64,000 nucleotides of DNA. Origin: Candidatus Kapaibacterium sp. GTDB taxonomy: Bacteria > Bacteroidota > Ignavibacteria > Kapaibacteriales > UBA7675. Both the position numbers and the translations under genes were made by a program. Below, in pieces: positions 20,425-49,172 of this stretch; the stretch's first letter is position 1; every line of letters starts with the position of its first letter. Location of the stretch: positions 3,256-67,255 of the forward strand of contig JANQRB010000074.1 in the NCBI GenBank assembly GCA_028284775.1, in the 5' to 3' direction. The notes below the pieces were generated by a model, which saw only the letters and a program-made list of their open reading frames with translations, was not told where the DNA came from and ran no database searches.

Positions 20425-23109
20425 ATGAGGATTTCCCGGATGCTACTCCCAAAACTGCTTGTTGCCTGTCTGGTGTTCATGATATTTTCAGCCTCATTGC
20501 AGGCACGCGAAAGCGGCAGTATAAGCGGTACAATCACTAATCTCGAAACGGGCGAGCCCTTGGGCGGAGTGTATTTGACGCTGCTGGGGACCGGACGCGG
20601 CGCCATCAGTACGGCTGCCGGAAGTTATCGGATCAACCTTTCTCCGGGCCTGTATACCTTGCGCGCGAGTCTGCTGGGCTATCGGCCGGAAGAGAAGGAG
20701 ATACGCGTCACGGCGGGCGAAGAGTCTATTGTTAATTTTGCCCTGGAACAGAGCGTCATCCAGTTTGGCGAAGTAGCCGTGACGCTCGGTTCGCGAACCG
20801 AGCGCATTGCCGTGGAAACTGCCGTACCAATCGACGTTATCGGCGCACAGTCGATCGAGGAATCAGGTTACGCCAACCTCAGTCAGGTCCTTCAATTTCT
20901 TGCGCCCTCATTTAATTCGTCACCGCAAACTGTTTCGGACGGAACTGATCATATCGATCCGGCCAGCCTGCGCGGCCTTGGACCGGATCAGGTATTGGTT
21001 TTGATAAACGGCAAACGACGTCATTCCTCGGCGCTGGTCAATGTTAATGGTACGGTCGGCCGCGGATCGGTGGGTACCGACTTTAACGCAATCCCGACAG
21101 CTGCCATCGAGCGGATCGAAATTCTGCGTGACGGCGCATCTGCTCAATATGGGTCGGATGCAATTGCCGGTGTGATAAATGTCCAGTTAAAGACACAAAC
21201 CGATGAGATCAGCGTCGACCTCATGAGCGGTATCACCGGCGAGGGCGATGGTGAAACGATTCGGTTTAACAGTAACTACGGTATTCCCATCGGTGAATTC
21301 GGCTATTTCAATGTTACTGCTGAATATCGCGATCGCCAGCCGACGAACCGTGCCGGCACGTATACAGGGCCGGTCTACAGTCAGGATGAAGCCGAAGACG
21401 AAGCATTGATAGCCGAACGCGGCTTTGATCGCGAAGCTATGAAAATCGGCAGTGCCAAGTCCCTGAATGCCGGACTGTTTTTCAATTCCTCGCTGCCTAT
21501 CAGCGACGAAGCCGACATCTACGCATTTGGCGGCACGAATTTCCGCAGCGGCAGAGGATTCGGTTTCTATCGCTATCCTTTCGAGGAGGCAAAGGTAAAT
21601 CTCGGTATTTATCCCGATGGTTTTTTGCCGGAGATTCACACGCTTATTCGTGACAATGCCATCACTGTGGGAGTCGATGGCCTCAATGATGATTGGATCA
21701 GCGATCTGAGTATTACGCACGGCAGCAATGCTTTCGCCTACAAAGTGCGCAACTCACTCAATGCCTCGCTCGGAGCGGATTCCCCCCTCGAATTTGACGC
21801 CGGCTCACTTAACTTTTCGCAAACCAGCGTAAACCTGGATGTTATCACATTTGTGATGCCGGAAGGCTTTCTCATTCCATTGTCGGTAGCCCTGGGTGCT
21901 GAGTTTCGCGTTGAAAACTACCGTATCGAAGCAGGTGAGGAAGCCTCGTACCTGCTGGGAACGGATACGACGTCCACCGGCGACCCGAAATTCCCGGGTG
22001 CGCAGGTATTTCCCGGTTTTCAGCCGTCGAACGAAGTTGACGAGTACCGGAGTAATGCAGCGTTCTTTCTCGACCTCGAAAGCGACATTGCCGATGATCT
22101 ACTGCTGAACCTCGCCGGTCGTTTCGAAAACTATAGTGATTTCGGCAGTAATGTCAGTGCCAAGCTGGCCGGACGCTGGTCGATGATGGAAGCGCTGGCG
22201 CTCCGAGCAGCCTTCAGTACGGGATTCCGGGCCCCGTCATTGCATCAGCTGTACTTTAACAACATCAGCACACAATTCGTAGAGGACGAAGATACGGGCG
22301 ATCTTGTGGCCCGGCAGGTACTTACCAGCAATAACAGCAGTCCGGTAACCCGTTCTTTCGGCATCCCCGATCTCAAAGAAGAACAGTCACTTAACTTCAG
22401 CGCCGGCATCAGCAGTCGACCGCTCGAAAACTTATCGCTCACTATCGATTTTTATCGGATCGATATCGAGGACCGTATTGTACTCTCAGGCCGTTTCAGC
22501 AGGAACGATCCTACGGTCGCGGCGCTGCTTGAGCCGTTCAGCGGAGTCAGCGCGGCTCAGTTTTTCACTAATGCCGTCGACACCAAAACCCAGGGCGTCG
22601 ATATTGTGCTTTCCTATGGTGTTGAGCTGGGCGGCGGCGACCTTGAATTGACCGCGGCGGCCAATCTGACCGAGACCGAAATCGACGGAGCCGTCAAGAC
22701 CTCTGCTGAGTTGCAAGGATTGGAAGAGACGCTGTTTAACCGTGAAGAGCGTTCGCGTCTGGAGCTAGCACAACCCGGACTTAAGTCATCCCTGGGCGCC
22801 AGATACCAGATTGATGATTTCACGGCGCGGGCGCGCCTCAGTTACTTTGGTGAAATCGACTATGTCCATCCGACACTCCCGGCAAACGACCAGACCTTCA
22901 GCGCGCAATCGCTGCTTGATGTCGAGCTCGCCTATGCGCTGACTCGCGGCTTGAAGCTGCGTCTCGGCGGAAACAACATCTTCAATGTCTTTCCGGATGA
23001 AAATATTCCCGCCAATACCAGCAGCGGACGCTTTGTCTATAGCCGGCGTGTGACGCAATTTGGGTTTAACGGCGGGTTTTACTACGCTGGACTTGATGTA
23101 CGGCTCTAA
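20425..23109 (+). CDS. TonB-dependent outer-membrane receptor with an N-terminal carboxypeptidase-regulatory-like (CarbopepD_reg) domain, i.e. SusC/RagA-like architecture.
   Basis: Signal peptide. SGTITNLETGEPLGGVYLTL...GSYRI resembles CarbopepD_reg. The plug has the TonB box and the IEILRDGASAQYGSDAIAGVINV motif. The C-terminal beta-barrel ends in a terminal aromatic-type motif (GLDVRL). Confidence 0.85.
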   Translation: MRISRMLLPKLLVACLVFMIFSASLQARESGSISGTITNLETGEPLGGVYLTLLGTGRGAISTAAGSYRINLSPGLYTLRASLLGYRPEEKEIRVTAGEESIVNFALEQSVIQFGEVAVTLGSRTERIAVETAVPIDVIGAQSIEESGYANLSQVLQFLAPSFNSSPQTVSDGTDHIDPASLRGLGPDQVLVLINGKRRHSSALVNVNGTVGRGSVGTDFNAIPTAAIERIEILRDGASAQYGSDAIAGVINVQLKTQTDEISVDLMSGITGEGDGETIRFNSNYGIPIGEFGYFNVTAEYRDRQPTNRAGTYTGPVYSQDEAEDEALIAERGFDREAMKIGSAKSLNAGLFFNSSLPISDEADIYAFGGTNFRSGRGFGFYRYPFEEAKVNLGIYPDGFLPEIHTLIRDNAITVGVDGLNDDWISDLSITHGSNAFAYKVRNSLNASLGADSPLEFDAGSLNFSQTSVNLDVITFVMPEGFLIPLSVALGAEFRVENYRIEAGEEASYLLGTDTTSTGDPKFPGAQVFPGFQPSNEVDEYRSNAAFFLDLESDIADDLLLNLAGRFENYSDFGSNVSAKLAGRWSMMEALALRAAFSTGFRAPSLHQLYFNNISTQFVEDEDTGDLVARQVLTSNNSSPVTRSFGIPDLKEEQSLNFSAGISSRPLENLSLTIDFYRIDIEDRIVLSGRFSRNDPTVAALLEPFSGVSAAQFFTNAVDTKTQGVDIVLSYGVELGGGDLELTAAANLTETEIDGAVKTSAELQGLEETLFNREERSRLELAQPGLKSSLGARYQIDDFTARARLSYFGEIDYVHPTLPANDQTFSAQSLLDVELAYALTRGLKLRLGGNNIFNVFPDENIPANTSSGRFVYSRRVTQFGFNGGFYYAGLDVRL

Positions 23110-24108: not shown

Positions 24109-25737
24109 ATGGCTTATCGGGTAACGCGCTCCGAGGCAGACCAGGCGTCCATTGACTCTCCCGTCCGAATGTATCGGAAGATATATGAACTATTGTTTGC
24201 CAGTCCTTCGGAAGCGATTCAAGAAGCGGAAAGATGTATTGTCACGCTTTCCGAGGCCGCTACTCCACCCAATGCGCGTGTGGTGTTTCGCTTGTTAAGT
24301 TATTGCTGTGAAGCCTGCTCATACCTGAACTCTGAAAAACTGCTGCTGAGCTATGTTGATCGTATCAAGTCTCTCTGGCCGCAGATATCGCATACGGTAG
24401 ATAGAGTATTCTACCTCCAACAGATAGGTGCCTGTTATTATCAGGCGGGATTGAAAATAGAGGCGATAAAATACCTCGAAGCTGTAATGCCCTTGTCGGA
24501 AGAGTACAAACTTTCAGACTCTGAAATCAGTCAGACGCTCCACCTGCTGGGTTTAGTGAATTTTTGTAGCGGTCAGTATATCGTTGCGCTTGAATACTAT
24601 CACCGGCTCCTGCGACTCGTTCCGGAATCTGACACTAGCCTTGAAAACTGCCCGCTGTACTGCAATCTGGCCGAAATTTACGCTGCATTGAGTCAGCACA
24701 GTGAGGCCATGAAGTTTTTCGAGCTGGGGCTGGCATCCGCCAGAGCCGGTGGCAGGCCCGTTGTGTTATCACAGATGCTTACTTTTCTGGCCGAATATTA
24801 CATCAAAATCAGGCGCCAAATGGATGCCGCACGGTGTATTGCCGAATCGCAAGAGCTTTCAGTGCTCAACGGATTTAGCTACATGCGCGATCTGAATGTC
24901 CTTCTCCTGGCCCGCATTCGCATTCTTAACAATGATTGTGATCTTGCTCTGCAAATGGTCGAGCACCTGTTATTCACCGCTAAAACATCAAACCATCAAC
25001 CATTGTTTAAGTTAATGTGCACTGAAACGCTGGGTCAGATATACGAAGTAACGGGGGCTCACCTACGTGCGCGCGATGTCTTTCTTCGCATGGCGGATCT
25101 GGCTGCTCAACTGGGTCTGCAGCGCGAGCTTGCGGAAGCCTACGGTCATCTATCCGCAATAGAAGAACAGCGGGGCGCATTCGCTCAGGCACTACTTTTT
25201 TATAAAACATCGACAAGTATATGGCTCGGTATTACGGGCCCGGCGATACAGAAGCAATTGGCGGATATCGCCAGACTCCGCGAGCTTCAATTTGAAAACA
25301 AGCTTCTCGACGATGACCCGAACAAGACAAATTTTCGACTATCAAGAAGCGCACAGAAAGTTGCAGAGGACTCGAGATTCCAGCAGGTTTTGAGGACGCT
25401 GAGGCAGGCAGATCATACTAATGCGATGATCAGTGAATCGCCTGGTATTGCATCCGACGGCCACAGCATATCCAACAAAGCAGGTATTCACTTACTGTCT
25501 TCCGACGACAACCGAATGCTGGCTCTGTTAAAATTGAATCTGCTTAGTCGCGCGCCGAATCTCAGTCAAATGGAAACCAAAATTTGTCTGCTTATTGCCC
25601 GAGGCTTACAGTCAAAGGAAATTGCCGATGCGCTGAGTAAGTCGGTGGAGACGGTAAACTCACATCGCAAGAGTATCCGCAAAAAGCTGAAACTCGCGCG
25701 GGGCGAAAATCTGTTTCGATGCCTCAGAGCCATGTAG
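24109..25737 (+). CDS. TPR-like + LuxR-HTH transcriptional regulator, a close paralog of 40561..42186.
   Basis: C-terminal LuxR/GerE HTH ETKICLLIARGLQSKEIADALSKSVETVNSHRKSIRKKLKL. Long collinear identity blocks with the 40561 product, for example CPLYCNLAEIYAALSQH.../CPQFCNLAEAYAAMGRQ... and SARAGGRPVVLSQMLT/SARAGKQPVVLLQMLT. Confidence 0.75.
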   Translation: MAYRVTRSEADQASIDSPVRMYRKIYELLFASPSEAIQEAERCIVTLSEAATPPNARVVFRLLSYCCEACSYLNSEKLLLSYVDRIKSLWPQISHTVDRVFYLQQIGACYYQAGLKIEAIKYLEAVMPLSEEYKLSDSEISQTLHLLGLVNFCSGQYIVALEYYHRLLRLVPESDTSLENCPLYCNLAEIYAALSQHSEAMKFFELGLASARAGGRPVVLSQMLTFLAEYYIKIRRQMDAARCIAESQELSVLNGFSYMRDLNVLLLARIRILNNDCDLALQMVEHLLFTAKTSNHQPLFKLMCTETLGQIYEVTGAHLRARDVFLRMADLAAQLGLQRELAEAYGHLSAIEEQRGAFAQALLFYKTSTSIWLGITGPAIQKQLADIARLRELQFENKLLDDDPNKTNFRLSRSAQKVAEDSRFQQVLRTLRQADHTNAMISESPGIASDGHSISNKAGIHLLSSDDNRMLALLKLNLLSRAPNLSQMETKICLLIARGLQSKEIADALSKSVETVNSHRKSIRKKLKLARGENLFRCLRAM

Positions 25738-25932: not shown

Positions 25933-26337
25933 GTGTCGAAACAACAATTAGCGTCAGGCAAGACTTTCAGCTTTGCCCGATTTGCAAGAAATTGGAATAT
26001 CGGGCTTGTGCTGGGAATAGTATTTCTCTTGTTGCAGGCGGCATTGGTCATTCAAGCGCAATTCGTCAACACCCGCTATTTCTGTTGGGCGCCTCACACC
26101 ATTCAGGCGCAATACACGCTCCGTGTTGAGATCGACGGCAAAATTCTCAGTGAAGATGATGTTAAGAAGCGCTATCATTTGAAGGGATTCGGATGGGAGG
26201 CTCATTCTATTCATAATGTGTTTGCGCTTCTGGAACAACACGAAGAAACCTACGGCAAAAAGGATCAGGCGCGCCTGACATTGGAGTATCGTGTCAATGG
26301 CGGTGACCGACATACATGGATCTGGCCTAAACAATGA
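25933..26337 (+). CDS. Small single-pass membrane protein of unknown function, first gene of cluster A.
   Basis: One TM segment (IGLVLGIVFLLLQAALVI) followed by a soluble ~90 aa domain. Its stop overlaps the next start (ATGA). Confidence 0.4.
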   Translation: MSKQQLASGKTFSFARFARNWNIGLVLGIVFLLLQAALVIQAQFVNTRYFCWAPHTIQAQYTLRVEIDGKILSEDDVKKRYHLKGFGWEAHSIHNVFALLEQHEETYGKKDQARLTLEYRVNGGDRHTWIWPKQ

Positions 26338-27425
26338 TGCGTAACTTACTGCATGCCGCTAATCCGCTGCGTTGCACGGACAAGTCCCTGCCGCCTGTGC
26401 TGGTTGTTGTCGCAAAAATCCTGGCCCTGGTCCTTATTATCCGCGGCGATCAGCCATTTGAGCTCTATTTGCCATACTTTGAATTCATCGATTCAATAGC
26501 CGCTCCTGAACTTTTCCATTTGGCCTTGCGCGGCATGACATACACAGGATTTGTCCTGTTATTCTTTACTCCGCTGTTGCGCTCGGGCTGCCTGCTCGTC
26601 GGTGCAGCATTCCTGATCGGTCTACTCAGCTGCCGTCCCTGCTTGTCCGTTGCACATACCTATGTAGCGGCATTATTTATTATTCTCGCGCTGAGCAGCA
26701 ATGCCTCTGGCAGCCGGCTGCTGCGTCTGCAAGTCGTGATGCTCTATGCGGGCGCCTGTCTAAACAAGCTGCGCGATGCCGACTGGTGGAACGGTCAGTA
26801 TTTTGAGACTCTGATGGTCACGAGGCACGCCCACGAGCTGTACATAGCAACTGCGGCCCTGTTTCCGCCCATGATGCTTTCCACAGTCATGGGCATTATT
26901 ACAATTTTTGTTCAGCTCGCATTGAGCATTTGTTTTCTCAGGCGCAGCTGGTATAATACCGGCATCGTACTCGGCTTAACATTTCACGGCGTGATGATCA
27001 TTCTGATGAACGGCACCTTCGGTCCGTTTTTTATGGCCATTGTAATCTCCTATCTGGCATTTGTCGAGTGGCCCGAACAAATTCAGATTAGTTCGGAAGG
27101 CTCCGTCTGGAAACAACGTCTGCAAAAAGCACTGTCTGCAATTGATTTCGACCGACTCTACCATAAAGTTCATCAAGGTGGCGCAGGTCCGAGTCGACTC
27201 CAGATTACTCTGAACGGCAGATCCTACTATGGATTTGCCGCCTTCCAGCTCCTGGTTTTTTATAATCCCATTATTATGGCTTTTGCGGCATTCGTCTTGA
27301 CGGAATCACATTTCGGTGTGTTTCGCAGATTCATCGTACTCTTTCTGCTCGTATTCTTCAGTCCGCTAATGACCCGTTTTGTCGAGTTCATTCAGACGGG
27401 CAGTTTGGCTAAGGCAACGAAATAG
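26334..27425 (+). CDS. Polytopic membrane protein, HTTM-like, homologous to 2464..3711.
   Basis: Multiple TM helices. Conserved Lys/His-containing core shared with the 2464..3711 product. Translationally coupled to the upstream small membrane protein gene. Confidence 0.45.
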   Translation: MMRNLLHAANPLRCTDKSLPPVLVVVAKILALVLIIRGDQPFELYLPYFEFIDSIAAPELFHLALRGMTYTGFVLLFFTPLLRSGCLLVGAAFLIGLLSCRPCLSVAHTYVAALFIILALSSNASGSRLLRLQVVMLYAGACLNKLRDADWWNGQYFETLMVTRHAHELYIATAALFPPMMLSTVMGIITIFVQLALSICFLRRSWYNTGIVLGLTFHGVMIILMNGTFGPFFMAIVISYLAFVEWPEQIQISSEGSVWKQRLQKALSAIDFDRLYHKVHQGGAGPSRLQITLNGRSYYGFAAFQLLVFYNPIIMAFAAFVLTESHFGVFRRFIVLFLLVFFSPLMTRFVEFIQTGSLAKATK

Positions 27426-27621
27426 CGGCTCCGCTGTAAAGGCTTGAACATCTGACGGCAGAGGCAGCCGATCAAGTTCTCGAATTCAACATTTCGCCTG
27501 CGCTGCCTGAGACAGGCAAGATGTATATTCAGCTTGCAAGGGCTATTGTAAGTTCGGAAAGGAAGTTCGACCCAATTTGGTATATTACGGATCTTCATTA
27601 TTAAAGTAAGTCGAGTCTTAG

Positions 27622-28449
27622 ATGTATCTCGGTCAGATCTCGGAAAATCTGAGTCTTATGGATTCAGGAATTTGGCGATCCGCGGCAACACGCGATATCT
27701 CATATCCGATGGAAGGAAATGAAATCTGTTTTTCGATTGAGAATGACTCATTCTGGTATCAGCACAGGAGCAGCTGCATCGTGGAAGCGATCAGGGCGCA
27801 TCGACCCGACGGAGCAATAGTTGATGTTGGCGGAGGTAATGGTATAGTTTCGTTGGAGCTTCAGAGGCAGGGAATGGATGTTTACCTATTGGAACCGGGG
27901 TATCAGGGAGTTCTTAACGCAAAGAAGCGCGGGCTCAGGCATGTCATCAACTCGAGCCTTGAAGACGCAGGCTTTAAGCCTTCGGTCTTACCCGCTGTCG
28001 GACTGTTTGACGTATTGGAGCATATTGAAGACGATGCTGCATTTTTGCAACTAATAAACAGAATTCTTGTCCGTGGCGGCAAACTATATTTATCAGTTCC
28101 GGCTTACAATTTTCTATGGTCTCGAAACGACGAGCACTTGGGGCACTTTAGAAGATACAGTCTTTCAACTCTGACTCAACGGCTAAAAAGTGCAGGCTTT
28201 ATACCGGATTATTTAACATACTATTTTCAAGCACTGCCGCTGCCCATATTTCTTACTCGAACACTGCCGGGAAAGTTGGGCTTTTTCAAAGAAATTAGCC
28301 CCGAGCACAAACGCAGAGAGCACGGAGTGAAGTCGAAAAGACTGCGATCGATTGTCGCCAGGAGTCTGAAGAGAGAAGTTCGGTGTATCAGACGACAAAA
28401 ACAGATACGCTTTGGCGCCTCCTGTCTGGTCGTTGCCAGCAAGGCATAA
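27622..28449 (+). CDS. Class I SAM-dependent methyltransferase.
   Basis: Motif I IVDVGGGNGIVSLEL, an acidic residue at the end of beta2 (YLLEP), and post-I motifs LFDVLEHIED ... GGKLYLSVP. Confidence 0.7.
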   Translation: MYLGQISENLSLMDSGIWRSAATRDISYPMEGNEICFSIENDSFWYQHRSSCIVEAIRAHRPDGAIVDVGGGNGIVSLELQRQGMDVYLLEPGYQGVLNAKKRGLRHVINSSLEDAGFKPSVLPAVGLFDVLEHIEDDAAFLQLINRILVRGGKLYLSVPAYNFLWSRNDEHLGHFRRYSLSTLTQRLKSAGFIPDYLTYYFQALPLPIFLTRTLPGKLGFFKEISPEHKRREHGVKSKRLRSIVARSLKREVRCIRRQKQIRFGASCLVVASKA

Positions 28450-28486
28450 GGTAAAACCCCGTAAAGAACGCCGAGGGTTATTGTTT

Positions 28487-29326
28487 ATGCGTGAATGTCA
28501 ATTACTGCTCTTCTCAACGGATGAACACACGATTGCAGCTTCCGACGCCGGGGGAGTAGCGGGTTATATCGTCGATTGGGAATGTAAAGGGAAAGCCGGA
28601 CGCCAAAGCAGATTAGATACCCAGATTAACCACAACAGCCTGGAAGACTTGATTCGGGTGAGATCCGCAACGGATAAGCTAGTACTCTGCCGTGTTAACA
28701 ATTTCGCAACCTGCGTTCGCGAGCGAAATAAAGAGATTGATCTGGCGGTAGACAATGGCGCTGACGAAATACTGCTGCCTATGGTTCGCAGTGTGAGGGA
28801 AGTTGAGAATGTGTTGGATCACATTAACTCGCGTTGCGATCTTGGAATCCTGATCGAGACTTGTGAATCTGTGGCACTTGCCAGGGAATTGGGCGAATTA
28901 CCGCTATCCAGAGTGTACCTGGGTCTCAATGATCTTGCCATAGAACGCAATACACGAAACATCTTCAGCGCATTGGAAGACGGCACCGTCGATCGCGTCA
29001 GACAGCAGGTGCGCGCACCTTTTGGTTTTGCCGGTCTTACTCTGCCCGAGAAAGGCTATCCGATACCCTGTCGGCTTCTCATGAGCGAACTGGTTCGCCT
29101 TACTTGTTCCTTCACTTTTCTTCGTCGCACTTTCCTTGCCGACACACAGGATCGGAATCTCACACTGGAAATTCCGCGAATACTGGATGCACTTAGCGAT
29201 ACAAATAATTATTCCGACAACGAACTAGAATCACAGCGTTTGTGGATCAACGAAGTAATTCGAGAGAGCGCTCCATATTTCCAGAACAAGGGAGGCCGGG
29301 AGCGTGAAGATTTTATTGATGTATAG
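28487..29326 (+). CDS. HpcH/HpaI aldolase / citrate-lyase-beta-like TIM-barrel protein. The start is taken at MRECQLLLF; the longer ORF 28412.. overlaps the upstream gene.
   Basis: Collinear with the family pattern: LLLFSTDE (lfvPg), GADEILLPMVRSVREVENV (d.i.lPKv.s.e.v), LGILIETCESVALARELGELP (l.liEt..gv.n..eIa), LGLNDLAIE (G..Dl). Confidence 0.5.
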   Translation: MRECQLLLFSTDEHTIAASDAGGVAGYIVDWECKGKAGRQSRLDTQINHNSLEDLIRVRSATDKLVLCRVNNFATCVRERNKEIDLAVDNGADEILLPMVRSVREVENVLDHINSRCDLGILIETCESVALARELGELPLSRVYLGLNDLAIERNTRNIFSALEDGTVDRVRQQVRAPFGFAGLTLPEKGYPIPCRLLMSELVRLTCSFTFLRRTFLADTQDRNLTLEIPRILDALSDTNNYSDNELESQRLWINEVIRESAPYFQNKGGREREDFIDV

Positions 29327-30257
29327 CCCCGGCGCTCATCACTTCGAGGCTCTAAGGGAGGCTGCCCCGTCTGCACAGCTTGCTGTTGCGGAAAGCTTGG
29401 CCAGTGCCGCAGAGCAGATTAAAGATGCCGATGTCGTTATGGGTAACCGTTATTTTCTTCAGTCCTTACCCTATGCTCGGAATCTGTCCTGGATGCAGTC
29501 CGGTTCAATGGGCGTCGACACAATTCTTGAGGGCGGCGGCACGGCAATACGGGATCTGACAATAACAAGCTGTCGCGGTGTGTACGATAGCGAGATAGCG
29601 GAGCACGCGCTTTCATTGATCCTCGCCTTTTACCGGGGTGTTCATCTGGCCAGAGATTATCAGCGGCAGGGCTGTTGGAAGCGAATTCCGCTTCGCTCTC
29701 TGGCCGGCACACGTGCCTTGATTCTCGGTTGGGGCGGCGTCGGCCAACGCATTGCGCACTACATGCGCGCGCTTAATGTCAGGGTACAAGGTGTACGGCG
29801 CAGGCATAACGGCGCTCCGCAGAAAAATTCAGATGGTTTTTTGATTTGGGGCGCCGACTCCTGGCGCGATGCGCTGCCGCAGACAGATATCCTGGTGCTT
29901 GCTTTACCAAAAACCGCGCAGACGCATCACCTGGTTTCGCGGCCGGAACTAAACGGACTGCCGCGCGATGCGCTGCTGGTTAATGTGGGCAGAGGCGGAA
30001 CGCTCGACGAAACCGCGCTGCATCTGACACTCGACGAAGGGCACCTGCTGGGAGCGGCCCTGGACGTGTTTGAGCATGAACCATTACCCGAACATCACTG
30101 GATCTGGACACACGAAAAGATTCTGATAACGCCGCATTGGGCCAGGAGTATCGAAACGCCGCCTTACCGATGGGAACCGTTGTTCGTTGAAAATCTTCGA
30201 CGCTTTTATCAAGGAGAGGTTCTGCTCAATGTTGTCGACAAATGCGCAGGATATTGA
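29304..30257 (+). CDS. D-isomer-specific 2-hydroxyacid dehydrogenase family, NAD(P)-binding.
   Basis: Rossmann motif LILGWGGVGQRIA, then LVNVGRGGTLDETAL ... AALDVFEHEP and the catalytic-loop His in ITPHWA, matching the PGDH/hydroxypyruvate reductase-type family. Confidence 0.8.
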   Translation: MKILLMYSPGAHHFEALREAAPSAQLAVAESLASAAEQIKDADVVMGNRYFLQSLPYARNLSWMQSGSMGVDTILEGGGTAIRDLTITSCRGVYDSEIAEHALSLILAFYRGVHLARDYQRQGCWKRIPLRSLAGTRALILGWGGVGQRIAHYMRALNVRVQGVRRRHNGAPQKNSDGFLIWGADSWRDALPQTDILVLALPKTAQTHHLVSRPELNGLPRDALLVNVGRGGTLDETALHLTLDEGHLLGAALDVFEHEPLPEHHWIWTHEKILITPHWARSIETPPYRWEPLFVENLRRFYQGEVLLNVVDKCAGY

Positions 30258-31014
30258 AGCTTTGAGCGTCGTTGTACCTGTGTACAACAATGCACAGACA
30301 CTTGTCACGCTTATCAGCAGACTGAGAGAGGCACTCGAGCCCCTTAGACTTCCTTTTGAATTCATTTTTGTGGTTGATGCAAGCCCGGATGACTCTCTAA
30401 AAGTGCTAAAGCGGACCGCCGAAGTCGACAAGGCAGTAAAGATATTGGCATTAGAAAGGAACCTTGGCCAGAACTGGGCTATATTGATCGGTTTGGCGAA
30501 TGCCAGTGGAGACGCCATTGCAACCCTCGACGCAGATCTGCAGGATCCCCCCGAAGCAATTCCGACGCTGGTTCAGACCCTAGGCAAGGGCGCCGATGTT
30601 GTGTTTGGCGGACGACGAGGAGATTACGAATCTCGGCCGCGATTACTTGGCTCCAGGATTTTCAAAAGACTTGTTCACTTGCTTTCGGGTACTGAGATTC
30701 CTCACGACGCCGGGCTCTTTCTCGTGATGAAAAAGGTCATGGCGAAACACTTGTTGACGTACCGAATACATGATCCTTACGTTATCGCCTTGATGAGCCG
30801 GACGGAATTTTGTCTCAAATCAATCCCGGTGCGGAGGTCCTTGTCTCCTGACAGCGGGTCATCATACACCACACGAACAAGATTTGTGCTGGCGTGGAAG
30901 GCTCTTGCAACTCTATTTCGAGTTCGCCAATCAGCGTTTGGGGATCGACAAACAACGATCTCCGCACGAATCTCCCGGGATTTTGAGCCCCTGTTAATAA
31001 AGTACAATTTCTAA
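30229..31014 (+). CDS. Family 2 glycosyltransferase of the polyprenyl-phosphate sugar synthase type (DPM1/ArnC/GtrB-like). The start is taken at MLSTNAQ.
   Basis: LSVVVPVYNNAQTL, VVDASPDDS (DxD-type), ERNLGQNWAILIGLANASGDAIATLDADLQDPPEAIP are typical GT2 (GT-A fold) motifs. Overlaps the upstream dehydrogenase gene. Confidence 0.8.
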   Translation: MLSTNAQDIEALSVVVPVYNNAQTLVTLISRLREALEPLRLPFEFIFVVDASPDDSLKVLKRTAEVDKAVKILALERNLGQNWAILIGLANASGDAIATLDADLQDPPEAIPTLVQTLGKGADVVFGGRRGDYESRPRLLGSRIFKRLVHLLSGTEIPHDAGLFLVMKKVMAKHLLTYRIHDPYVIALMSRTEFCLKSIPVRRSLSPDSGSSYTTRTRFVLAWKALATLFRVRQSAFGDRQTTISARISRDFEPLLIKYNF

Positions 31015-31016
31015 AA

Positions 31017-31784
31017 TTGGGATATGTAATGAAGACCCAGGAACAGGACGTACAAGTCCACAATAGAGAGCAGGTAGACTATTTCAGCTCTAAGGTCAAG
31101 CCGACGATGGTCCCTGAAGATACGCCGTACATCGTCAGACAGATTGATGAATTACTTGCATTCGGCAATATCGGACCTGGTAATCGGGTACTGGACGTCG
31201 GCTGCGGCATGGGACGATATACGCTGAATATTGCAGGACGAGGCATTAACATCGAGGGCCTTGACCTGACGCCCTTCCTGCTGGAAAAACTGAATGAGTA
31301 TAACAACGGCCGATACAATATTCCTCTTCATTGTGCAGACATTATCGATCATCCGGAAGAAATGAACGGCAGATACGACGCCGTGATTGGTTTTTTTACC
31401 CTACATCATTTGCACAACATCCCGGTCTGCTATCAAGCCATGGCAAAAATGGTGAAGCCAGGTGGATCGATCTTGTTTCTGGAGCCGAATGCCTATAATC
31501 CTTTGTACTACATTCAGGTTGCGATTTCGCCTGGCATGAAATGGAAGGGCGGCGACGAAGGTATCGTTGACATGCGTAGGAGCGTAGTATTCGATGCAAT
31601 GAAGTCGGCCGGATTAACAGATCTACAGCTAAAGCGCTTTGGTTTTTTCCCACCTTTTCTTGCCAACCGGAGCTGGGGTCAGCGCCTGGAAATAGCGCTG
31701 GAAAAGTTTCCGGTCTGGGGTCCGATGTTGCCATTTCAGATATTCAAGGGAAGCAAACCGGGGCATGAGAATTCCGCCGTTTAA
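31017..31784 (+). CDS. Class I SAM-dependent methyltransferase.
   Basis: Motif I VLDVGCGMGRYTLNIAG, acidic residue GLDLTP, motif II-like YDAVIGFFTLHHL and GGSILFLEPN. Confidence 0.7.
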   Translation: MGYVMKTQEQDVQVHNREQVDYFSSKVKPTMVPEDTPYIVRQIDELLAFGNIGPGNRVLDVGCGMGRYTLNIAGRGINIEGLDLTPFLLEKLNEYNNGRYNIPLHCADIIDHPEEMNGRYDAVIGFFTLHHLHNIPVCYQAMAKMVKPGGSILFLEPNAYNPLYYIQVAISPGMKWKGGDEGIVDMRRSVVFDAMKSAGLTDLQLKRFGFFPPFLANRSWGQRLEIALEKFPVWGPMLPFQIFKGSKPGHENSAV

Positions 31785-33294
31785 GAGTGAAGCCGAAGAA
31801 AATGAGCCGGATTTACCTTGGTTCAGGTCAACGCCGTCGCAACTAGCGTTTGTCTATTTGATGTCGATCCTCATATTGCTCCAATATGGAATCGATAAAC
31901 AGGCAATTCAGCACGACTGCGCCTATCTAATGTACATGGGGCAGGTCGTTTTCCGGGGAGATGCGCTCTATTCTTCCACTACCTTCGGCTATACGCCCTA
32001 TGGGCCGATGCTTTCGGCGTTTACAATGCATATCGGCCAGCTATTTGGCTTTAAAACATATCTGGCGCCCCGTTACTTCAGTTTGATTGTGGCGGCTCTC
32101 AATTCCTGTTTATTGTATCTGATTGCTCGCAACATCTCGCGCAGCAGCCGGATGGGTATATTCGCGGGCCTGACTTTAAGTGGATTTGGCTATCTGGCGA
32201 TTCTCAGTATCAGCAGCCTCGAACCAAAATTGATGGTTGTCACATGCATGCTACTGGCAATGCACGCGCTGCAGCAACACCGATGGCTGGTAGCCGGCGC
32301 AGCCAGTGCCGCGGCCGCAATGTTCTGGCAGCCCGCCCTCATCATAACGCCTGCGATAGCGACAATGCTGATCCTGTTTGATTCCGCGGCCTTGTTAAAG
32401 CGACTTGCAAGGTTTTGCGCAGGCTATTTCCTGGGCCTCCTGCCGGCAATCATCTATCTGACGAGTACGCAGGACTGGAGTAATTTTTATTTCCAGGCAA
32501 TCGTCAGGAAAGCCTTAACCGATCTTCCCAATGCTGCCGATGCTCCTATTTCATGGCTGGGTGACGCTCTGACGATATACTATACGGAAGTATTCGTCTT
32601 TGTGTTTGCACTTGCGGGTTTCATTTACTGTATCATCCGCTTGCTGATTCTGTCGAAGGCATCGCGAAACGAACTCTTGATCAATGGAGGATATGGCGCA
32701 GTCATACTCTTAACGCTGCTTTGGTCATTGTTTAACAGCATTGAGTTTGATGGTGGTCAGGATTTGGTACCCATTCTTCCACTCCTGGCTTTTTGGTTCG
32801 CATACCTTCTTGATGAACTACTTCGTAGAGGGCGCCACATTGCACCCCGCTACGCGAAGGCCAAAAAGGCCGTAACAGCCGCCGTTCTGACCCTGGTGGG
32901 GGGCTACCTCTATTTCGATGCCATGTCGTACAAACCGACATACACGCTCTCGGCTCAATACGAAACGCTGAACAATTGTATTGACTCTGCCAATCCGCCG
33001 CCCCGATTTCTAAGTTTTAATGCTGAAGAATTCTATGTATTAACCGAACAGCGCGCCCCCCTGCGCTATACGCAGTTGGGTAGATGGATAGAGCTCTTAA
33101 TCGATCACTACGAACCCGGGAAAATCGATGGTTTTCTGGCTTCCCTAAAAAGAGAATTACCGCCAATCGTGATCATCCGGCACAAGAAAGACAGCGCCGT
33201 TCAGGACAGTATTGAGAGCTTTTTGGCGGATTACACAAAATCGAGCATCGTAGCTCCCGGTTTATACAAAGGATATTCGCTTTACAGAAAGTAA
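31765..33294 (+). CDS. Large polytopic membrane protein, probably a GT-C-fold (PMT/ArnT/GtrC-like) glycosyltransferase.
   Basis: 509 aa with 10 or more predicted TM helices. A conserved periplasmic-loop-like segment follows the first TM. It overlaps the upstream methyltransferase gene and sits immediately after a polyprenyl-P-sugar-type GT2. GT-C membership is an inference from topology and context, not a motif match. Confidence 0.4.
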   Translation: MRIPPFKSEAEENEPDLPWFRSTPSQLAFVYLMSILILLQYGIDKQAIQHDCAYLMYMGQVVFRGDALYSSTTFGYTPYGPMLSAFTMHIGQLFGFKTYLAPRYFSLIVAALNSCLLYLIARNISRSSRMGIFAGLTLSGFGYLAILSISSLEPKLMVVTCMLLAMHALQQHRWLVAGAASAAAAMFWQPALIITPAIATMLILFDSAALLKRLARFCAGYFLGLLPAIIYLTSTQDWSNFYFQAIVRKALTDLPNAADAPISWLGDALTIYYTEVFVFVFALAGFIYCIIRLLILSKASRNELLINGGYGAVILLTLLWSLFNSIEFDGGQDLVPILPLLAFWFAYLLDELLRRGRHIAPRYAKAKKAVTAAVLTLVGGYLYFDAMSYKPTYTLSAQYETLNNCIDSANPPPRFLSFNAEEFYVLTEQRAPLRYTQLGRWIELLIDHYEPGKIDGFLASLKRELPPIVIIRHKKDSAVQDSIESFLADYTKSSIVAPGLYKGYSLYRK

Positions 33295-33425: not shown

Positions 33426-35063
33426 TTACAGCTGAGCAAGCCCGCGCTCCGCTACTTTACGCTTAAACACCTCTACAATCGAAACTTCGTCCGCTTTACT
33501 TTCCAGCCAGAACAGTAATTCAGTTCGGCCCAGGGGAATGCTCTCGGCACAGCCTTGCACAAGTGTTGTGAGCTCAGCATGCAGCTGTCGGCAGATCGCG
33601 GCTATTTCCGCGGGCCGCGTGGTAGCGGCGATTTTATTGAGACCGGCAAGGTAAGTTTTGACAAAGTCATCGAGGCGTTTCCTGCGCTTCAGATAGCGCT
33701 GCGCTGAACGAACGAGCGAGTCAAGCAAATCCAGGCTGCCCAATTCGACATGCAACACTGGCAACAGCAGACGCGCGCATTCCTGAATGTCACGGCGAAT
33801 TTCAATCTGCGCCTGCGACAGAATTTTTTCGAGCCACTGCAGAGTGCGGGCAAAATCGCCGCTGAAGAACAGGAGCAGCATAATGTTGTAGTGAAAAATC
33901 ATTACGCGTGCTTCACTCAGCTTACCGGCATAAGTGTTTAAGCGATGTTCGATTTCATCTATGAGAGCCAGGCTGTCGTCAAAGCTGCCGGTCTGTAATC
34001 GGAAAGTCAGCTCCAGGTAGTAAACGTTCTCGAAAGTCCTGATTTCGTCATGCAGCGAATCCGAGGGCAGCGCTTTGATCGATTGCAGCACCGGCTGGAT
34101 TTCGTCTAAGCGTTCAGCCGCAATACATGCATTCAGGTAATTGGTAAGGATGGCTTTGTAGCGCGCAGCTTCAAATGAAATTCTCTGCGGATGGTTGTTC
34201 CACAATTCAACCAGGCGTTTTTGATAAGCGTAGGTTTTATTTTTACGGCCGGTAATCATTGAATGTAGTGCGTGGATCTGAAGATAGCTCGATTTTGCCC
34301 GAAAGGTCAAAGCCTGCCTTTCACTCTTCAAAAGCGAGTGCGTCATTATCTCCTGCAAGCGGGCGAATGTTTGCGCATCCTGGGCGTGCATTTGCTGCTT
34401 CACAAGGATTGTCATGCGCGTATTGAGATCGGCGTAAACTTTTTCATTGTTTAACTTGGCAAGTGTCATTTGTTCGCGTTCCAGGATATCCGTCAGTTCG
34501 CCCTCGATGTTTTTCTTTTGCTGTTGAAGGGTCGTCATCCGTTCCATATCCAGAATTTCGAGCAATTCGAGATGCCGGTCGAATTGTTCGGCCTGGACCC
34601 GGGCCTTTTTCAAAAACTTGTGGCCCAGCTTGTATAGCCCGCGGTCAAAAAGGATAGCGATACTCCGCACCATCTCCTGTAGGCCTGCAAGCTGCGATTT
34701 CCCTGTTTGATGCAGGTAGAGACTGTGCACGATAAGTCTGGCGAGTTGATAGCGTGTCGAGGGTAGGTGAGCCACAAAGCTTTCGTGGCGTAGTTTTTTA
34801 CGTAGTCGGTCTTCATCAGTGCCGCCGTAGCGCTCGATGGCCTCAAAGAGTTTCAGGTAGTTATTGCGTCCGAGTTTGCTGTTACGCCTTGCCAACTGGC
34901 GAAACGATCGCTTTTCGCTAGCGCTCATCGATTGAATGAGCTGGTAGACTTCCTTCGTGGCTTTCATTCGAATGTATCTCCTGTCGCTGTTGCAGCTCGC
35001 TCCCGACCGACTCGCAAGGTCTGGCAGACCGACCTTCTCGCTAGTTACAAAAATCAGCGGCAT
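33426..35063 (-). CDS. All-helical (TPR-like) protein of unknown function, paralog of 51413..52969. The likely start is MKATKEVY, 96 nt inside the ORF.
   Basis: Collinear similarity to the 51413 product (KEVYQLIQSMSASEKRSFRQL...RNNYLKLFEAIERY versus DELFQLVKSLTPAEKRYFKVF...RNNYVHLFDAINRM). No enzymatic motifs. Confidence 0.5.
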   Translation of the reverse strand: MPLIFVTSEKVGLPDLASRSGASCNSDRRYIRMKATKEVYQLIQSMSASEKRSFRQLARRNSKLGRNNYLKLFEAIERYGGTDEDRLRKKLRHESFVAHLPSTRYQLARLIVHSLYLHQTGKSQLAGLQEMVRSIAILFDRGLYKLGHKFLKKARVQAEQFDRHLELLEILDMERMTTLQQQKKNIEGELTDILEREQMTLAKLNNEKVYADLNTRMTILVKQQMHAQDAQTFARLQEIMTHSLLKSERQALTFRAKSSYLQIHALHSMITGRKNKTYAYQKRLVELWNNHPQRISFEAARYKAILTNYLNACIAAERLDEIQPVLQSIKALPSDSLHDEIRTFENVYYLELTFRLQTGSFDDSLALIDEIEHRLNTYAGKLSEARVMIFHYNIMLLLFFSGDFARTLQWLEKILSQAQIEIRRDIQECARLLLPVLHVELGSLDLLDSLVRSAQRYLKRRKRLDDFVKTYLAGLNKIAATTRPAEIAAICRQLHAELTTLVQGCAESIPLGRTELLFWLESKADEVSIVEVFKRKVAERGLAQL

Positions 35064-40560: not shown

Positions 40561-42186
40561 ATGTCTTCTCAACAGAATTGCTCCACTATGAATCGACATT
40601 CATCTGAATCTCCCTTCCAGAAATGTATGAATGTCTACAAAGATTTGTACTCAGATCCGGCCGGGGCACTGCGAAAAGCCGAGCACTATATCAATCCTTC
40701 ATCCGCGCAGGCCGCAGCTCTGAGTGCCTCGGTCAAACTGCGATTGCTGATGTACTGCTATGAAGCCTGTACCTACCTGGGCAGCGATAATCTGCTGCCG
40801 CAGTATATGGCGCGAGTTAAAGCACTCCGGCCGCAGCTTTCACACGCCAATGAGTTAGTCGATTATTTTCAGTCAATGGGAGTCTGTTGCTATTTTGTCG
40901 GTCAAAAAAACGAGGCACTGAAGCATCTTTCGAAAGTACTGCGTCTGGCTGTCGTTCACCAGATTTCAGACAGAGAGATACGACAATCGTTACAGCTTTT
41001 GGGACTAATGCACTGCCGAAGCGGACAGCACGCCGACGCTGTTGCCATGTATCAGCGCATACTGCAGATATACCCAAAAAACACGATCGACGCTGATATC
41101 TGTCCGCAATTTTGCAATCTCGCCGAGGCATACGCCGCTATGGGCCGGCAAGACAAAGCCGTTGTGTATTTTGAACTAGGATTGAAATCCGCGAGAGCCG
41201 GCAAACAGCCCGTGGTTCTCTTGCAGATGCTTACTTCGATTGGCGAATTTTCCGTTAATACGAAGCAGCAGATGGCGGCAGCCGGTTATATCGCTGAAGC
41301 ACTCAAACTGTCGCACAAGATTAACATGCGGCACTCCCGGGATAAGAACACACTGCTTTTGGCCCGTATTCATGTACTCAACAACGAGCATGATGCAGCA
41401 CTGAAAATAGTCAGTCAATTGCTTAAACGGACGGAAGAATCGGATCGCCAGACTTTGTTCAGGGTCTTGTGCCTTAAATTGTTCGCTAAAATACTTGAAG
41501 ACAAAGGTGCGCATTCATCGGCGCGTGAAGCATATCTTCGAATGGCTGAGATTGCAGCATTCCTGGGCTTACGACCTGAGCTGGCTCAGGCATATAATCG
41601 GCTTTCGGCAATAGAAGAAAGAAGGGGAGAATACGCTCAGGCATTACTTTATCACAAAGTGTCGGCAAATTTGTGGCTTGACGTGCTGGCGCCCTCATCA
41701 CAACTGGAACTTGAGGAAGTCGGTCCGAAGGAAAAACCTGCCAGTAGGAGAGTGGCACACAATGGTCAATTATTGAGCGCGGATGTTCAGTTAAAGGCAT
41801 TTGAGCAAGAAATCGCCGAAGACGAAATTTTTCACCTTGCAATGAATTCGCGTTCATTTAGTGAACATTCTGCAGACAGAGCTGTCAATACGGTCACTGA
41901 AACGGAAGTTCAAAAGTACGGTGTCGACGAAGCATTGCGCATGAAGGCGGCACAGACCGTACCACTGCTGGCCAGGCTAAAGTTCAACCTGCTACGGCGT
42001 GCTCCCAAGCTGACTCCGACCGAGATCAAAATCTGTCTTTTAATTACCTGTGGCCTGCTGTCAAAAGAAATCGCGCCATTGCTGTGCAACTCCGTCGAGA
42101 CGGTCAACACTCATCGCAAGAACATTCGCCGCAAGCTTAAGCTCTCCTCGGGCGAGAATCTCGTCACATTCCTCAACTCTCTTTGA
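40561..42186 (+). CDS. TPR-like + LuxR-HTH transcriptional regulator, a close paralog of 24109..25737.
   Basis: C-terminal TEIKICLLITCGLLSKEIAPLLCNSVETVNTHRKNIRRKLKL. Extensive collinear identity to the 24109 product. Confidence 0.75.
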   Translation: MSSQQNCSTMNRHSSESPFQKCMNVYKDLYSDPAGALRKAEHYINPSSAQAAALSASVKLRLLMYCYEACTYLGSDNLLPQYMARVKALRPQLSHANELVDYFQSMGVCCYFVGQKNEALKHLSKVLRLAVVHQISDREIRQSLQLLGLMHCRSGQHADAVAMYQRILQIYPKNTIDADICPQFCNLAEAYAAMGRQDKAVVYFELGLKSARAGKQPVVLLQMLTSIGEFSVNTKQQMAAAGYIAEALKLSHKINMRHSRDKNTLLLARIHVLNNEHDAALKIVSQLLKRTEESDRQTLFRVLCLKLFAKILEDKGAHSSAREAYLRMAEIAAFLGLRPELAQAYNRLSAIEERRGEYAQALLYHKVSANLWLDVLAPSSQLELEEVGPKEKPASRRVAHNGQLLSADVQLKAFEQEIAEDEIFHLAMNSRSFSEHSADRAVNTVTETEVQKYGVDEALRMKAAQTVPLLARLKFNLLRRAPKLTPTEIKICLLITCGLLSKEIAPLLCNSVETVNTHRKNIRRKLKLSSGENLVTFLNSL

Positions 42187-48582: not shown

Positions 48583-48639
48583 TTTACTTGCTCTTAGGTC
48601 TTAGATATACATTGACATGGGTAATAGCATTTTTTTCTA

Positions 48640-49137
48640 TCAATCTGATTTTCTTTTCAGAACCTGATCTCGAAGAGCTTCATTTACATTCGAATATGCA
48701 GGTTCCACCCAGCTTGCGTTCCAGAACCAGACTCCAATTCCACGGTATATTTCGTACTGCGTTACTTTTGTTCCACCTTCAACAGGCTCAAGAATGTAAT
48801 AGTGATCAAATGTTAAGATGCCCCACAGACCGCCATATTGGTTCAACTCCTTCGGCACCTCCATTTTTACTACTTCAGCTTGGATTTGAGTTTTTGAGCT
48901 GTCAGGTCCCGTCATTTGATATACCATACTTTCTCCTTCAAGAAGTCTGCCGGATACCGGAACAAGTACAGGATTCCAGTCTTTATATGAATCAGAATCC
49001 ACTAGCACCTGCCATACTTCATTAGGTTCAGCAGGGATGACAATTTCAGTGTGAACAGTTTTACATCCTGTCAGTAAAGACACAAAGACTACCGATACTC
49101 CAAGGAAAAGCAACTGCTTGGATGTCAATATGTTCAT
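48640..49137 (-). CDS. SRPBCC-family lipoprotein.
   Basis: Lipobox LLTGC; PNEVWQVLVDSDSYKDWNPV is the hallmark SRPBCC N-terminal segment. Confidence 0.55.
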   Translation of the reverse strand: MNILTSKQLLFLGVSVVFVSLLTGCKTVHTEIVIPAEPNEVWQVLVDSDSYKDWNPVLVPVSGRLLEGESMVYQMTGPDSSKTQIQAEVVKMEVPKELNQYGGLWGILTFDHYYILEPVEGGTKVTQYEIYRGIGVWFWNASWVEPAYSNVNEALRDQVLKRKSD

Positions 49138-49172
49138 TTTTCACTCCTAATTTACAGCAAGACTCTGCTTTC

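Follow-up and report, generated by a model that had tools for sequence, protein, structure and literature searches.

In the Arn, Gtr and mycobacterial arabinan systems, glycosylation proceeds in two steps by way of a lipid carrier, and such glycosylation is at the root of antibiotic resistance, serotype conversion and cell-wall assembly. Here we analysed a cluster of eight genes at positions 25933-33294 of a stretch of 64,000 nucleotides (the window) from contig JANQRB010000074.1 of Candidatus Kapaibacterium sp. The last six genes, encoding two methyltransferases (MT1 and MT2), a TIM-barrel enzyme (TIM), an NAD(P)-dependent oxidoreductase, a family 2 glycosyltransferase (GT2) and a membrane protein of predicted GT-C glycosyltransferase fold, form a cassette whose content is conserved in at least ten phyla and whose order is often rearranged. 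On balance we consider it probable that the locus is a self-contained module for two-step lipid-carrier glycosylation outside the cytoplasmic membrane, using a tailored (methylated and possibly acid-bearing) donor sugar. This reading is favoured because the gene set is conserved, the GT2 is nearest to GtrB, ArnC and DPMS, the membrane protein is modelled with a GT-C fold and has an invariant aspartate, and the motifs of CitE are present in TIM. The architecture is a familiar one, and the interest of the locus lies in its conservation across phyla, its swapped oxidoreductases, the CitE-like enzyme in a glycan pathway and a vitamin-K-carboxylase-like accessory protein.

Several described systems are close to this arrangement. 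In the ArnA/ArnC/ArnT pathway, which adds aminoarabinose to lipid A, a GT2 of the same subfamily makes the polyprenyl-phosphate sugar and a GT-C enzyme transfers it outside the membrane; before flipping, an NAD-dependent short-chain dehydrogenase/reductase (SDR) and further enzymes of the cytoplasm do the tailoring, as we propose for the cassette. Unlike the Arn pathway, the cassette has no homologues of the ArnA formyltransferase, the ArnB aminotransferase, the ArnD deformylase or the ArnE/F flippase, its GT2 is without the transmembrane hairpin, two methyltransferases and a CitE-like TIM barrel are added, and it is present in bacteria without lipid A. The GtrA/GtrB/GtrC systems, and likewise GacI/GacL and CsbB/YfhO, share the logic of a GT2 lipid-sugar synthase combined with a GT-C transferase. 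They differ from the cassette in that the latter has four extra soluble enzymes and a GT2 without a membrane anchor; moreover, none of the eight proteins of the cluster matches GtrA, and the sole small protein among them has a single transmembrane helix, compared with about four in GtrA-like proteins.

Systems composed of a polyprenyl-phosphoribose synthase, a MATE flippase and a GT-C enzyme of family GT136, with an auxiliary SDR epimerase, are widespread and modular (Kelly et al. 2024, PMC11127046). They resemble the cassette, as we read it, in that the GT-C enzyme glycosylates outside the membrane and a cytoplasmic SDR changes the lipid-linked donor, but their donor synthase depends on phosphoribosyl pyrophosphate and is not a GT2, methyltransferases and a TIM barrel are absent, and their SDR keeps the YxxxK motif whereas most cassette SDRs have RxxxK. 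In Mycobacterium tuberculosis, the MtxS/MtxT methylthioxylose capping cluster (PMC8081860, citing Angala et al. 2017) and PpgS/Rv3779 are small clusters dedicated to one modification: the GT2 links an unusual sugar to decaprenyl phosphate, and the GT-C enzyme passes this sugar on to an envelope glycan. The MtxS/MtxT cluster is like the cassette, as we read it, in having accessory enzymes that build an unusual donor, but these are a methylthioadenosine phosphorylase and an epimerase. A further relative is the AglD/AglS/AglP system of Haloferax volcanii, since PF15971, the best Pfam match of the window GT-C protein, is the family of the Dol-P-mannose mannosyltransferase AglS. N-glycosylation in this archaeon combines a GT2 that makes a Dol-P-sugar with an S-adenosylmethionine (SAM)-dependent methyltransferase acting on the lipid-linked glycan. 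Compared with it, the match to PF15971 is below gathering (26.8 vs 33 bits), and the cassette is bacterial and carries genes for a TIM barrel and an oxidoreductase.

The cassette works like the Arn, Gtr, MtxS/MtxT, PpgS/Rv3779 and pentofuranose three-component systems and is a member of none of them, because its accessory enzymes differ, it has no flippase, its GT2 is truncated and its GT-C protein scores under the gathering thresholds of PMT_2 and PF15971. New relative to the characterised systems are a CitE-like lyase, interchangeable oxidoreductases of two unrelated families, two methyltransferases and, sometimes, a vitamin-K-carboxylase-like protein. The open-access literature, searched with gene-content keywords, yielded no description of the cassette.

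Gene content of the cluster

The list of open reading frames (ORFs) and a separate gene call on the same contig gave the same eight co-directional genes on the + strand. The span and strand in the initial annotation were thus retained, while three of its starts were moved: starts were shifted inward from the longest ORFs according to the separate gene call, and for TIM also according to the alignment of homologues, giving 28487 instead of 28412 for TIM, 30229 instead of 30187 for GT2 and 31029 instead of 31017 for MT2. The genes are as follows.

25933..26337, + strand, small membrane protein, 134 aa, with one N-terminal transmembrane helix and a C-terminal domain of ~90 aa
26334..27425, + strand, HTTM-like polytopic membrane protein, 363 aa
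27622..28449, + strand, MT1, soluble class I SAM-dependent methyltransferase, 275 aa (Pfam)
28487..29326, + strand, TIM, TIM barrel of the pyruvate kinase / HpcH / CitE superfamily, 279 aa (structure model and profile alignment)
29304..30257, + strand, NAD(P)-dependent D-isomer 2-hydroxyacid dehydrogenase (2-HADH), 317 aa (Pfam)
30229..31014, + strand, GT2 of the ArnC/GtrB/DPMS type, 261 aa (Pfam, NCBIfam and PDB profile matches)
31029..31784, + strand, MT2, soluble class I SAM-dependent methyltransferase, 251 aa (Pfam)
31765..33294, + strand, putative GT-C-fold membrane glycosyltransferase, 509 aa (weak Pfam matches and structure model)

With the corrected starts, 4/7 junctions overlap, in agreement with the several start/stop overlaps reported before: 4 nt between the small and the HTTM-like gene, 23 nt between TIM and 2-HADH, 29 nt between 2-HADH and GT2 and 20 nt between MT2 and GT-C. 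MT1 and TIM are separated by 37 nt and GT2 and MT2 by 14 nt, and a gap of 196 nt in front of MT1 sets the small and the HTTM-like gene apart from the cassette.

Conservation and distribution of the cassette

The alignment of TIM homologues was used to scan one genome per species, which gave 181 loci; 80 were kept and the counts below refer to these. They came from Acidobacteriota, Chloroflexota, Actinomycetota, Chlamydiota, Planctomycetota, Thermodesulfobacteriota, Firmicutes, Armatimonadota, Gemmatimonadota, Verrucomicrobiota and others, and included the cultured Pyrinomonas methylaliphatogenes; a TIM homologue was also found in Thermoflexus hugenholtzii. The gene for TIM had GT2 next to it in 63 loci, MT2 in 49 and, at a strict threshold, MT1 in 39. 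Beyond the six cassette families, ORF clustering gave no neighbouring family in more than five of the 80 loci, and the cassette therefore appears self-sufficient. On the contigs that carry the closest GT-C homologues, the orthologues of MT1, TIM, GT2, MT2 and GT-C were 43-62% identical and an extended SDR took the place of 2-HADH, with MT1 only 31-33% identical in the JGI and Logan loci L001 and L004.

Different gene orders were observed. Besides MT1-TIM-redox-GT2-MT2-GT-C, as in the window, there were loci arranged as [MT1 TIM][GT2 SDR, inverted][MT2 GT-C] and as [GT2 SDR, inverted][MT1 TIM GT-C], and the pairs redox-GT2, MT1-TIM and MT2-GT-C tended to stay together through the rearrangements. 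The pairing of GT2 and GT-C that the initial annotation had emphasised is thus conserved across loci, together with the two methyltransferases, the TIM barrel and an oxidoreductase. The cassette occurs in many poorly studied phyla, and among its carriers are cultured Pyrinomonas and Thermoflexus. The identity of its product would reveal an apparently common envelope modification, and it would give functions to the TIM family (>1,800 homologues) and the GT-C family (~900 representative clusters), both of which are now annotated generically.

In four loci (L001-L004) the cassette lies beside genes for Wzm/Wzt O-polysaccharide export and a second GT-C paralogue. In three of these, the JGI metagenome contigs L001-L003, the cassette is part of a polysaccharide locus of the ABC-transporter-dependent type, in which Wzm/Wzt (with a Wzt_C domain) lie on one side of it and genes for a GT4, a sulfatase and a sulfotransferase-GT2 fusion of 925 aa on the other; the second GT-C paralogue there (562 aa, e.g. 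L002 5706-8062) follows a 219-aa non-membrane protein and belongs to the sister family described below. Two close homologues of GT-C and TIM, P0005 and P0008 (NCBI KAR91_14620 / KAR91_14600), are filed under 'Candidatus Pacearchaeota archaeon' and one TIM homologue (L013) is in a metagenome-assembled genome (MAG) of Bathyarchaeota; these are either archaeal carriers or mis-binned bacterial contigs.

The two glycosyltransferases

GT2 matched Glycos_transf_2 (PF00535, 8e-28) in Pfam, and its best curated match in NCBIfam was the ArnC equivalog model (8.7e-32, N-terminal half only). The closest solved relatives in the PDB profile search were GtrB, ArnC and DPMS at 1e-26 to 1e-17, with GtrB (sll0501) at the top, while processive chondroitin and heparosan synthases matched at 1e-4 to 1e-5 only. 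The protein has the DADLQDPPEAIP motif and is colinear with ArnC to the juxtamembrane G-x-S-x-Y motif; DADLQDPPE, which holds the D-x-D metal/nucleotide motif, is kept in the consensus of 45 cassette GT2s. These matches support a grouping of the GT2 with the polyprenyl-phosphate sugar synthases (ArnC/GtrB/DPMS), as predicted in the initial annotation, and apart from the processive synthases.

The last gene had been called GT-C-like. Its best Pfam match, to the AglS-type family PF15971 (5e-6), and the match to PMT_2 (5e-4; 20.7 bits vs gathering 26.1) were both below threshold. GT-C enzymes combine a conserved N-terminal module of about 7 transmembrane helices with a variable module. A structure model built from five sequences (pLDDT 64.6, pTM 0.68) has 11 transmembrane helices and, at its C-terminus, an alpha/beta domain, and 13/13 Foldseek matches at E <= 0.001 were GT-C enzymes (TM-scores 0.44-0.49), among them ALG12, AglB, ALG9, STT3, PglB, DPY19 and ArnT. 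In 42 diverse members of the family (19-34% identity) the residues D51, Y69, R103, G178, G220 and Y231 were invariant. D51 is located just after transmembrane helix 1 in the first outer loop, where an acidic motif of GT-C enzymes was looked for, and it aligns with D-E of a sister family. The model and this aspartate support the assignment of the 509-aa protein as a GT-C-fold glycosyltransferase. What had been proposed for both glycosyltransferase genes was therefore supported, because the one is modelled with the fold and has the aspartate and the other is not processive-like.

An exhaustive HMMER search of cluster representatives (E <= 1e-3) gave 891 representative clusters for the GT-C family. 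A word-indexed homology search had found only 5 relatives among 5.8 billion proteins, and a repeat with the alignment added none; given the low sequence conservation in this membrane family, the rarity in that search is an artefact. The window protein is also distantly homologous (hhalign probability 96.7%, E 3.6e-10, 401 columns) to a ~530-aa membrane protein, the sister family, that ORF clustering placed after MT2 in 42 other loci and of which 2/5 members tested reached the PMT_2 threshold.

The TIM-barrel enzyme

TIM, which had been described as an HpcH/HpaI aldolase-like TIM barrel, had >1,800 homologues of 50-63% identity (E <= 0.001), and its alignment contained 46 invariant columns. The AlphaFold model (pLDDT 91) is a TIM barrel, so the fold stood, but CitE-type acyl-CoA lyases are closer to it than HpaI. 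Foldseek with this model gave pyruvate kinase, citramalyl-CoA lyase, HpaI, CitE and CLYBL at 12-20% identity, and the sole significant PDB match of the profile was the citramalyl-CoA lyase of P. aeruginosa (E 4.5e-5); the D-x-E, R-I-N, P-M/K-V, E-T/S and D-L motifs of the two fall on each other in this alignment. R69 (RIN), E124 (IET) and D149 (NDL) are invariant and aligned with the citramalyl-CoA lyase site; additional invariant residues are D-W-E, K36, R39-Q40, D44-T45-Q46, C68 and R213-R214. The window protein had no PF03328 match at E <= 0.01 and its homologues carry only weak precomputed matches. TIM is thus a distinct, highly conserved family inside the CitE/HpcH superfamily and is the best marker of the cassette. 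The chemistry shared in this superfamily, an Mg2+-stabilised enolate beside a carboxylate or thioester, is the predicted function of TIM as well. Matches to PEP_mutase were weak and precomputed only and the profile fits CitE-type lyases, and hence phosphoenolpyruvate mutase or phosphonate chemistry was rejected for this protein.

The CitE-family lyases (citramalyl-CoA lyase, malyl-CoA lyase and CLYBL) and the HpcH/HpaI class II aldolases share the fold and the metal/enolate motifs with TIM, but TIM is set apart by its extra invariant residues and a score below PF03328 gathering, and unlike these enzymes it is always found among glycan genes and not in a central-metabolism context. Relatives outside the canonical cassette adjoin GT2, methyltransferase or PMT_2 genes. 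Because these non-canonical relatives are still in glycan gene contexts, the family is tied to glycan biosynthesis.

Some of these outlying loci may be described individually. In a Chthoniobacterales MAG a GT2-Methyltransf_23 fusion gene is directly upstream of TIM (L032, 7628-8998), and in a Gaiellaceae MAG a PMT_2 GT-C gene takes this position (L028, 18-1436). A more distant relative (33% identity, labelled 'aldolase/citrate lyase family protein') is encoded at 9007-9828 of locus L093 on the Pseudohalocynthiibacter plasmid NZ_CP049039.1. It belongs to a Rhodobacterales nonulosonic-acid polysaccharide locus, where the gene for a NeuB-like synthase is the next one downstream. Genes nearby encode NeuC, a CMP-nonulosonate synthetase homologue, AsnB, DegT and a HisH/HisF-like amidotransferase. 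A similar distant relative is present in Roseovarius pelagicus NZ_CP106737.1.

The oxidoreductases and methyltransferases

The oxidoreductase of the window is, as annotated, a D-2-hydroxyacid dehydrogenase: it matched 2-Hacid_dh_C (PF02826) at 1.3e-44 (152 bits vs threshold 25.1) and an NCBIfam D-2-hydroxyacid dehydrogenase model at 1.7e-49, and the catalytic R/E/H motifs NVGRG, FEHEP and TPHWA are in the sequence. No equivalog cut-off was reached in NCBIfam and consequently no substrate is given, but the presence of such an enzyme in the redox slot points to a 2-oxo acid as the predicted substrate. Among the 80 loci, this slot was occupied by an SDR in 55 and by a 2-HADH in 12, and in none by both. 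In a neighbour-joining tree of the TIM proteins (without support values) the 2-HADH loci were scattered among the SDR loci, which suggested that the two have been swapped repeatedly as functional equivalents.

The cassette SDRs are atypical. Among the 46 SDRs of ORF cluster 3, from which the residue counts were taken (alignment A4 has the SDRs of L010, L005, L024, L004, L065, L019, L040 and L015), the Tyr position of YxxxK was Arg in 25, Tyr in 12, Phe in six and His in two, whereas the Lys was kept in 45/46. These SDRs lack the RmlB-type D-E pair, and beta strand 2 is followed by an NADP-type Arg. Matches to the NCBIfam D-erythronate dehydrogenase model reached 6e-15, and this enzyme is included in the extended SDR family. 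A role as NDP-hexose 4,6-dehydratases was rejected, with RmlB/LegB matches below cut-off, the D-E pair absent and the catalytic Tyr mostly absent. Hydroxyacid chemistry, which had been proposed for the locus, is therefore not secure, because in most relatives an atypical SDR replaces 2-HADH.

The two SAM methyltransferases of the initial annotation were both recovered by Pfam. MT1 matched Methyltransf_23 (1.8e-13) and Methyltransf_11 (2.2e-10), has no transmembrane segment and is usually encoded directly upstream of TIM; its orthologues in L001, L004 and L005 were 31-55% identical. MT2, usually directly upstream of GT-C and overlapping it, matched several methyltransferase Pfam families at ~1e-15 and is the most conserved cassette protein (orthologues 60-62% identical). 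Its best solved relatives are plant phosphoethanolamine N-methyltransferases (1e-17), but the similarity is confined to the SAM-binding domain and a function of this type was rejected.

Proposed pathway and alternatives

In the pathway that we favour, the GT2, by its family membership, would use a nucleotide sugar to glycosylate polyprenyl phosphate at the cytoplasmic face. MT1, MT2, the NAD(P) oxidoreductase and the CitE/HpcH-like enzyme would tailor the lipid-linked donor or the compound directly preceding it. Going by the conserved gene content, O-methylation is likely, and a 2-oxo acid or an acyl-CoA may contribute a branch or substituent, which would then be reduced. The donor would presumably be flipped by a protein encoded outside the cassette, after which the GT-C protein, judging from fold and conservation, would pass the sugar to an envelope acceptor by means of Asp51 in the first outer loop. 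The two membrane proteins encoded ahead of the cassette may serve as an optional accessory. A precedent for the tailoring step is the cytoplasmic SDR that alters the lipid-linked donor of a GT-C enzyme (PMC11127046).

A more far-reaching version of this pathway would involve a donor without precedent, that is, a polyprenyl-phosphate sugar with a C- or ether-linked carboxylic-acid unit contributed by the CitE-like enzyme, fixed by the oxidoreductase (an 'RxxxK' SDR or 2-HADH) and methylated twice, a new GT-C family and an acceptor common to one- and two-membrane bacteria, with the vitamin-K-carboxylase-like protein adding a quinone-dependent outer step in some lineages. We regard this version as unlikely. 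A di-O-methylglycerate substituent as on Campylobacter flagellin sugars was also considered and would fit two methyltransferases and a glycerate-type dehydrogenase, but no gene-level precedent and no acyl-activating enzyme were found and it was rejected.

Several observations weigh against the favoured pathway. By hydrophobicity the GT2 has no transmembrane segment and the C-terminal hairpin of ArnC and GtrB, which serves as their anchor and makes up the lipid-phosphate site, is absent, so that its likeness to these enzymes holds for the family but not for the membrane anchor, and a lipid acceptor is not guaranteed. Pfam and transmembrane scans revealed no flippase of the GtrA, ArnE/F or MATE type among the eight proteins of the window cluster, and no nucleotidyltransferase, acyltransferase or CoA ligase in the cassette connects the reactions of TIM and the oxidoreductase with a sugar. 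With Arg in place of the canonical Tyr in 25/46 of the SDR partners, the redox step is uncertain, the GT-C model is only moderately confident at its pLDDT of 64.6, and the evidence gives the identity of neither the sugar nor the acceptor.

The missing membrane anchor of the GT2 is also what recommends the main rival explanation, in which the GT2 glycosylates a small hydroxy or phospho acid (glycerate-, lactate- or malate-like) made by TIM and the oxidoreductase, the methyltransferases act on the product and the GT-C protein uses another lipid-linked donor. The GT2 would then be comparable to glucosyl-3-phosphoglycerate synthase (GpgS) and its product to the glucosylglycerate primer of methylated polysaccharides. 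The redox and GT2 genes do remain adjacent across rearrangements, the 2-oxo-acid reductase motifs of 2-HADH are intact, the TIM superfamily binds 2-oxo acids and the GT2 has a weak NCBIfam match to GpgS (4e-9). However, this match is ~23 orders of magnitude poorer than that to ArnC, the ArnC-type juxtamembrane region is kept in the GT2, and a GT-C enzyme without a dedicated donor synthase would be odd in an otherwise self-contained cassette. Furthermore, lipid-phosphate sugar synthases without transmembrane helices exist, e.g. PpgS of M. tuberculosis and human DPM1. Mainly because the GT2 is far closer to ArnC than to GpgS, we consider this explanation quite unlikely.

A slightly lower probability is given to the possibility that, in the window organism, the locus is an Arn-like resistance or remodelling system decorating lipid A, the lipopolysaccharide (LPS) core or a cargo glycan of the type IX secretion system (T9SS). 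The GT2 resembles ArnC and the GT-C model resembles ArnT, the organism has T9SS cargo and TonB-dependent receptors and thus two membranes, and the L001-L004 cassettes adjoin O-polysaccharide export genes. Against this, ArnT was only the 12th fold match, after ALG12, AglB and STT3, ArnA, ArnB and ArnD homologues are lacking, and the cassette is common in groups that have one membrane or lack LPS (Chloroflexota, Actinomycetota, Pelotomaculum and Heliobacteriaceae). Its frequent occurrence in Chloroflexota, Actinomycetota and Firmicutes also disposes of lipid A, the LPS core and T9SS cargo glycans, which had been named among the candidate acceptors, as the general acceptor, because these are single-membrane phyla. 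The Arn-like reading could hold locally, with an acceptor that varies by lineage, and the acceptor of the favoured pathway may likewise differ between lineages.

It is improbable, and more so than either of the two preceding explanations, that TIM, the oxidoreductase and the methyltransferases belong to a separate pathway for some small molecule or lipid, their genes sharing no more than location or regulation with an ordinary GT2/GT-C pair. No cassette enzyme visibly links acid to sugar chemistry and the methyltransferase matches are generic (UbiG, UbiE and PEAMT type), as would be compatible with such an arrangement, but the six families travel together across phyla in the interleaved order MT1-TIM / redox-GT2 / MT2-GT-C and the outlying TIM loci are in glycan contexts (the GT2-methyltransferase fusion, the PMT_2 gene and the NeuB locus). 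Finally, although a promoter and terminator scan of the cluster found such sites no more frequently than in shuffled sequence, a chance juxtaposition of ORFs or an annotation artefact is scarcely credible given the strong domain matches, the orthologues of five genes at 43-62% identity in unrelated contigs and, far beyond chance, the recurrence of the same gene content in dozens of the 80 loci from unrelated genomes and in several gene orders.

Accessory membrane proteins

The first two genes of the cluster were described as an HTTM-like membrane protein with a small membrane partner. The small protein had no Pfam or NCBIfam match and one hydrophobic segment (residues 22-40). The HTTM-like protein has ten hydrophobic windows, some of which overlap, giving ~8-9 helices, and its resemblance to the HTTM domain of vitamin-K-dependent gamma-carboxylases was weakly supported: there was no Pfam and no PDB profile match, and the match to the NCBIfam SdpB family was weak (2.3e-3). 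In an hhalign comparison with residues 210-316 of human GGCX (E 0.006, probability only 6%), K-L-R-D-A-D-W was placed on K218-L-D-A-D-W with a later H, FH and G.F in register. Most cassettes lack both genes. The three further homologues that were found, in a Bryobacteraceae genome (L065) and in two near-identical marine metagenome contigs (L091 and L092), are each directly beside a cassette with the small gene immediately upstream of the HTTM-like homologue. The two proteins are an optional accessory pair of the cassette.

Flanking genes and other features of the window

A LuxR-type regulator is present just upstream of the cluster, as had been pointed out, but a link to the cassette did not emerge. 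The gene (24109-25737) is one of three in the window for regulators with TPR and LuxR (GerE) domains; it is 42% identical over the full length to that at 40561-42186, and the gene at 4345-6264 encodes a third relative. No relative of the upstream regulator was found in the 80 genome loci and no GerE-family gene in the gene tables of L001-L010. With three paralogues in the window and none in the related loci, a function as dedicated regulator of the cassette was rejected. The convergent gene downstream of the cluster also has a paralogue within the window: the proteins encoded at 33426-35063 (-) and 51413-52969 (-) are ~520-545 aa long and 29% identical, the former with a match far under cut-off to the NCBIfam BT2802 'ribose utilization' domain model. 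Each is downstream of a LuxR-TPR paralogue, and the two families may bracket separate gene islands.

Elsewhere in the window, a protein with a T9SS C-terminal sorting domain is encoded at 359-2377 (+) and TonB-dependent receptors with CarboxypepD_reg domains at 20425-23109 (+) and 43416-45716 (-), which point to a host with two membranes in the Bacteroidota/FCB group. Rfam and tRNA scans of the window gave no rRNA, tRNA or Rfam element. The region 48001-50000 has a G+C content of 0.38, compared with ~0.50 elsewhere, and contains genes for an AraC regulator, an SRPBCC protein and a protein whose alpha/beta-hydrolase match is weak and below threshold; the gene for a classical SDR (50186-51025) is located just downstream. 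This low-G+C region may have been acquired horizontally.

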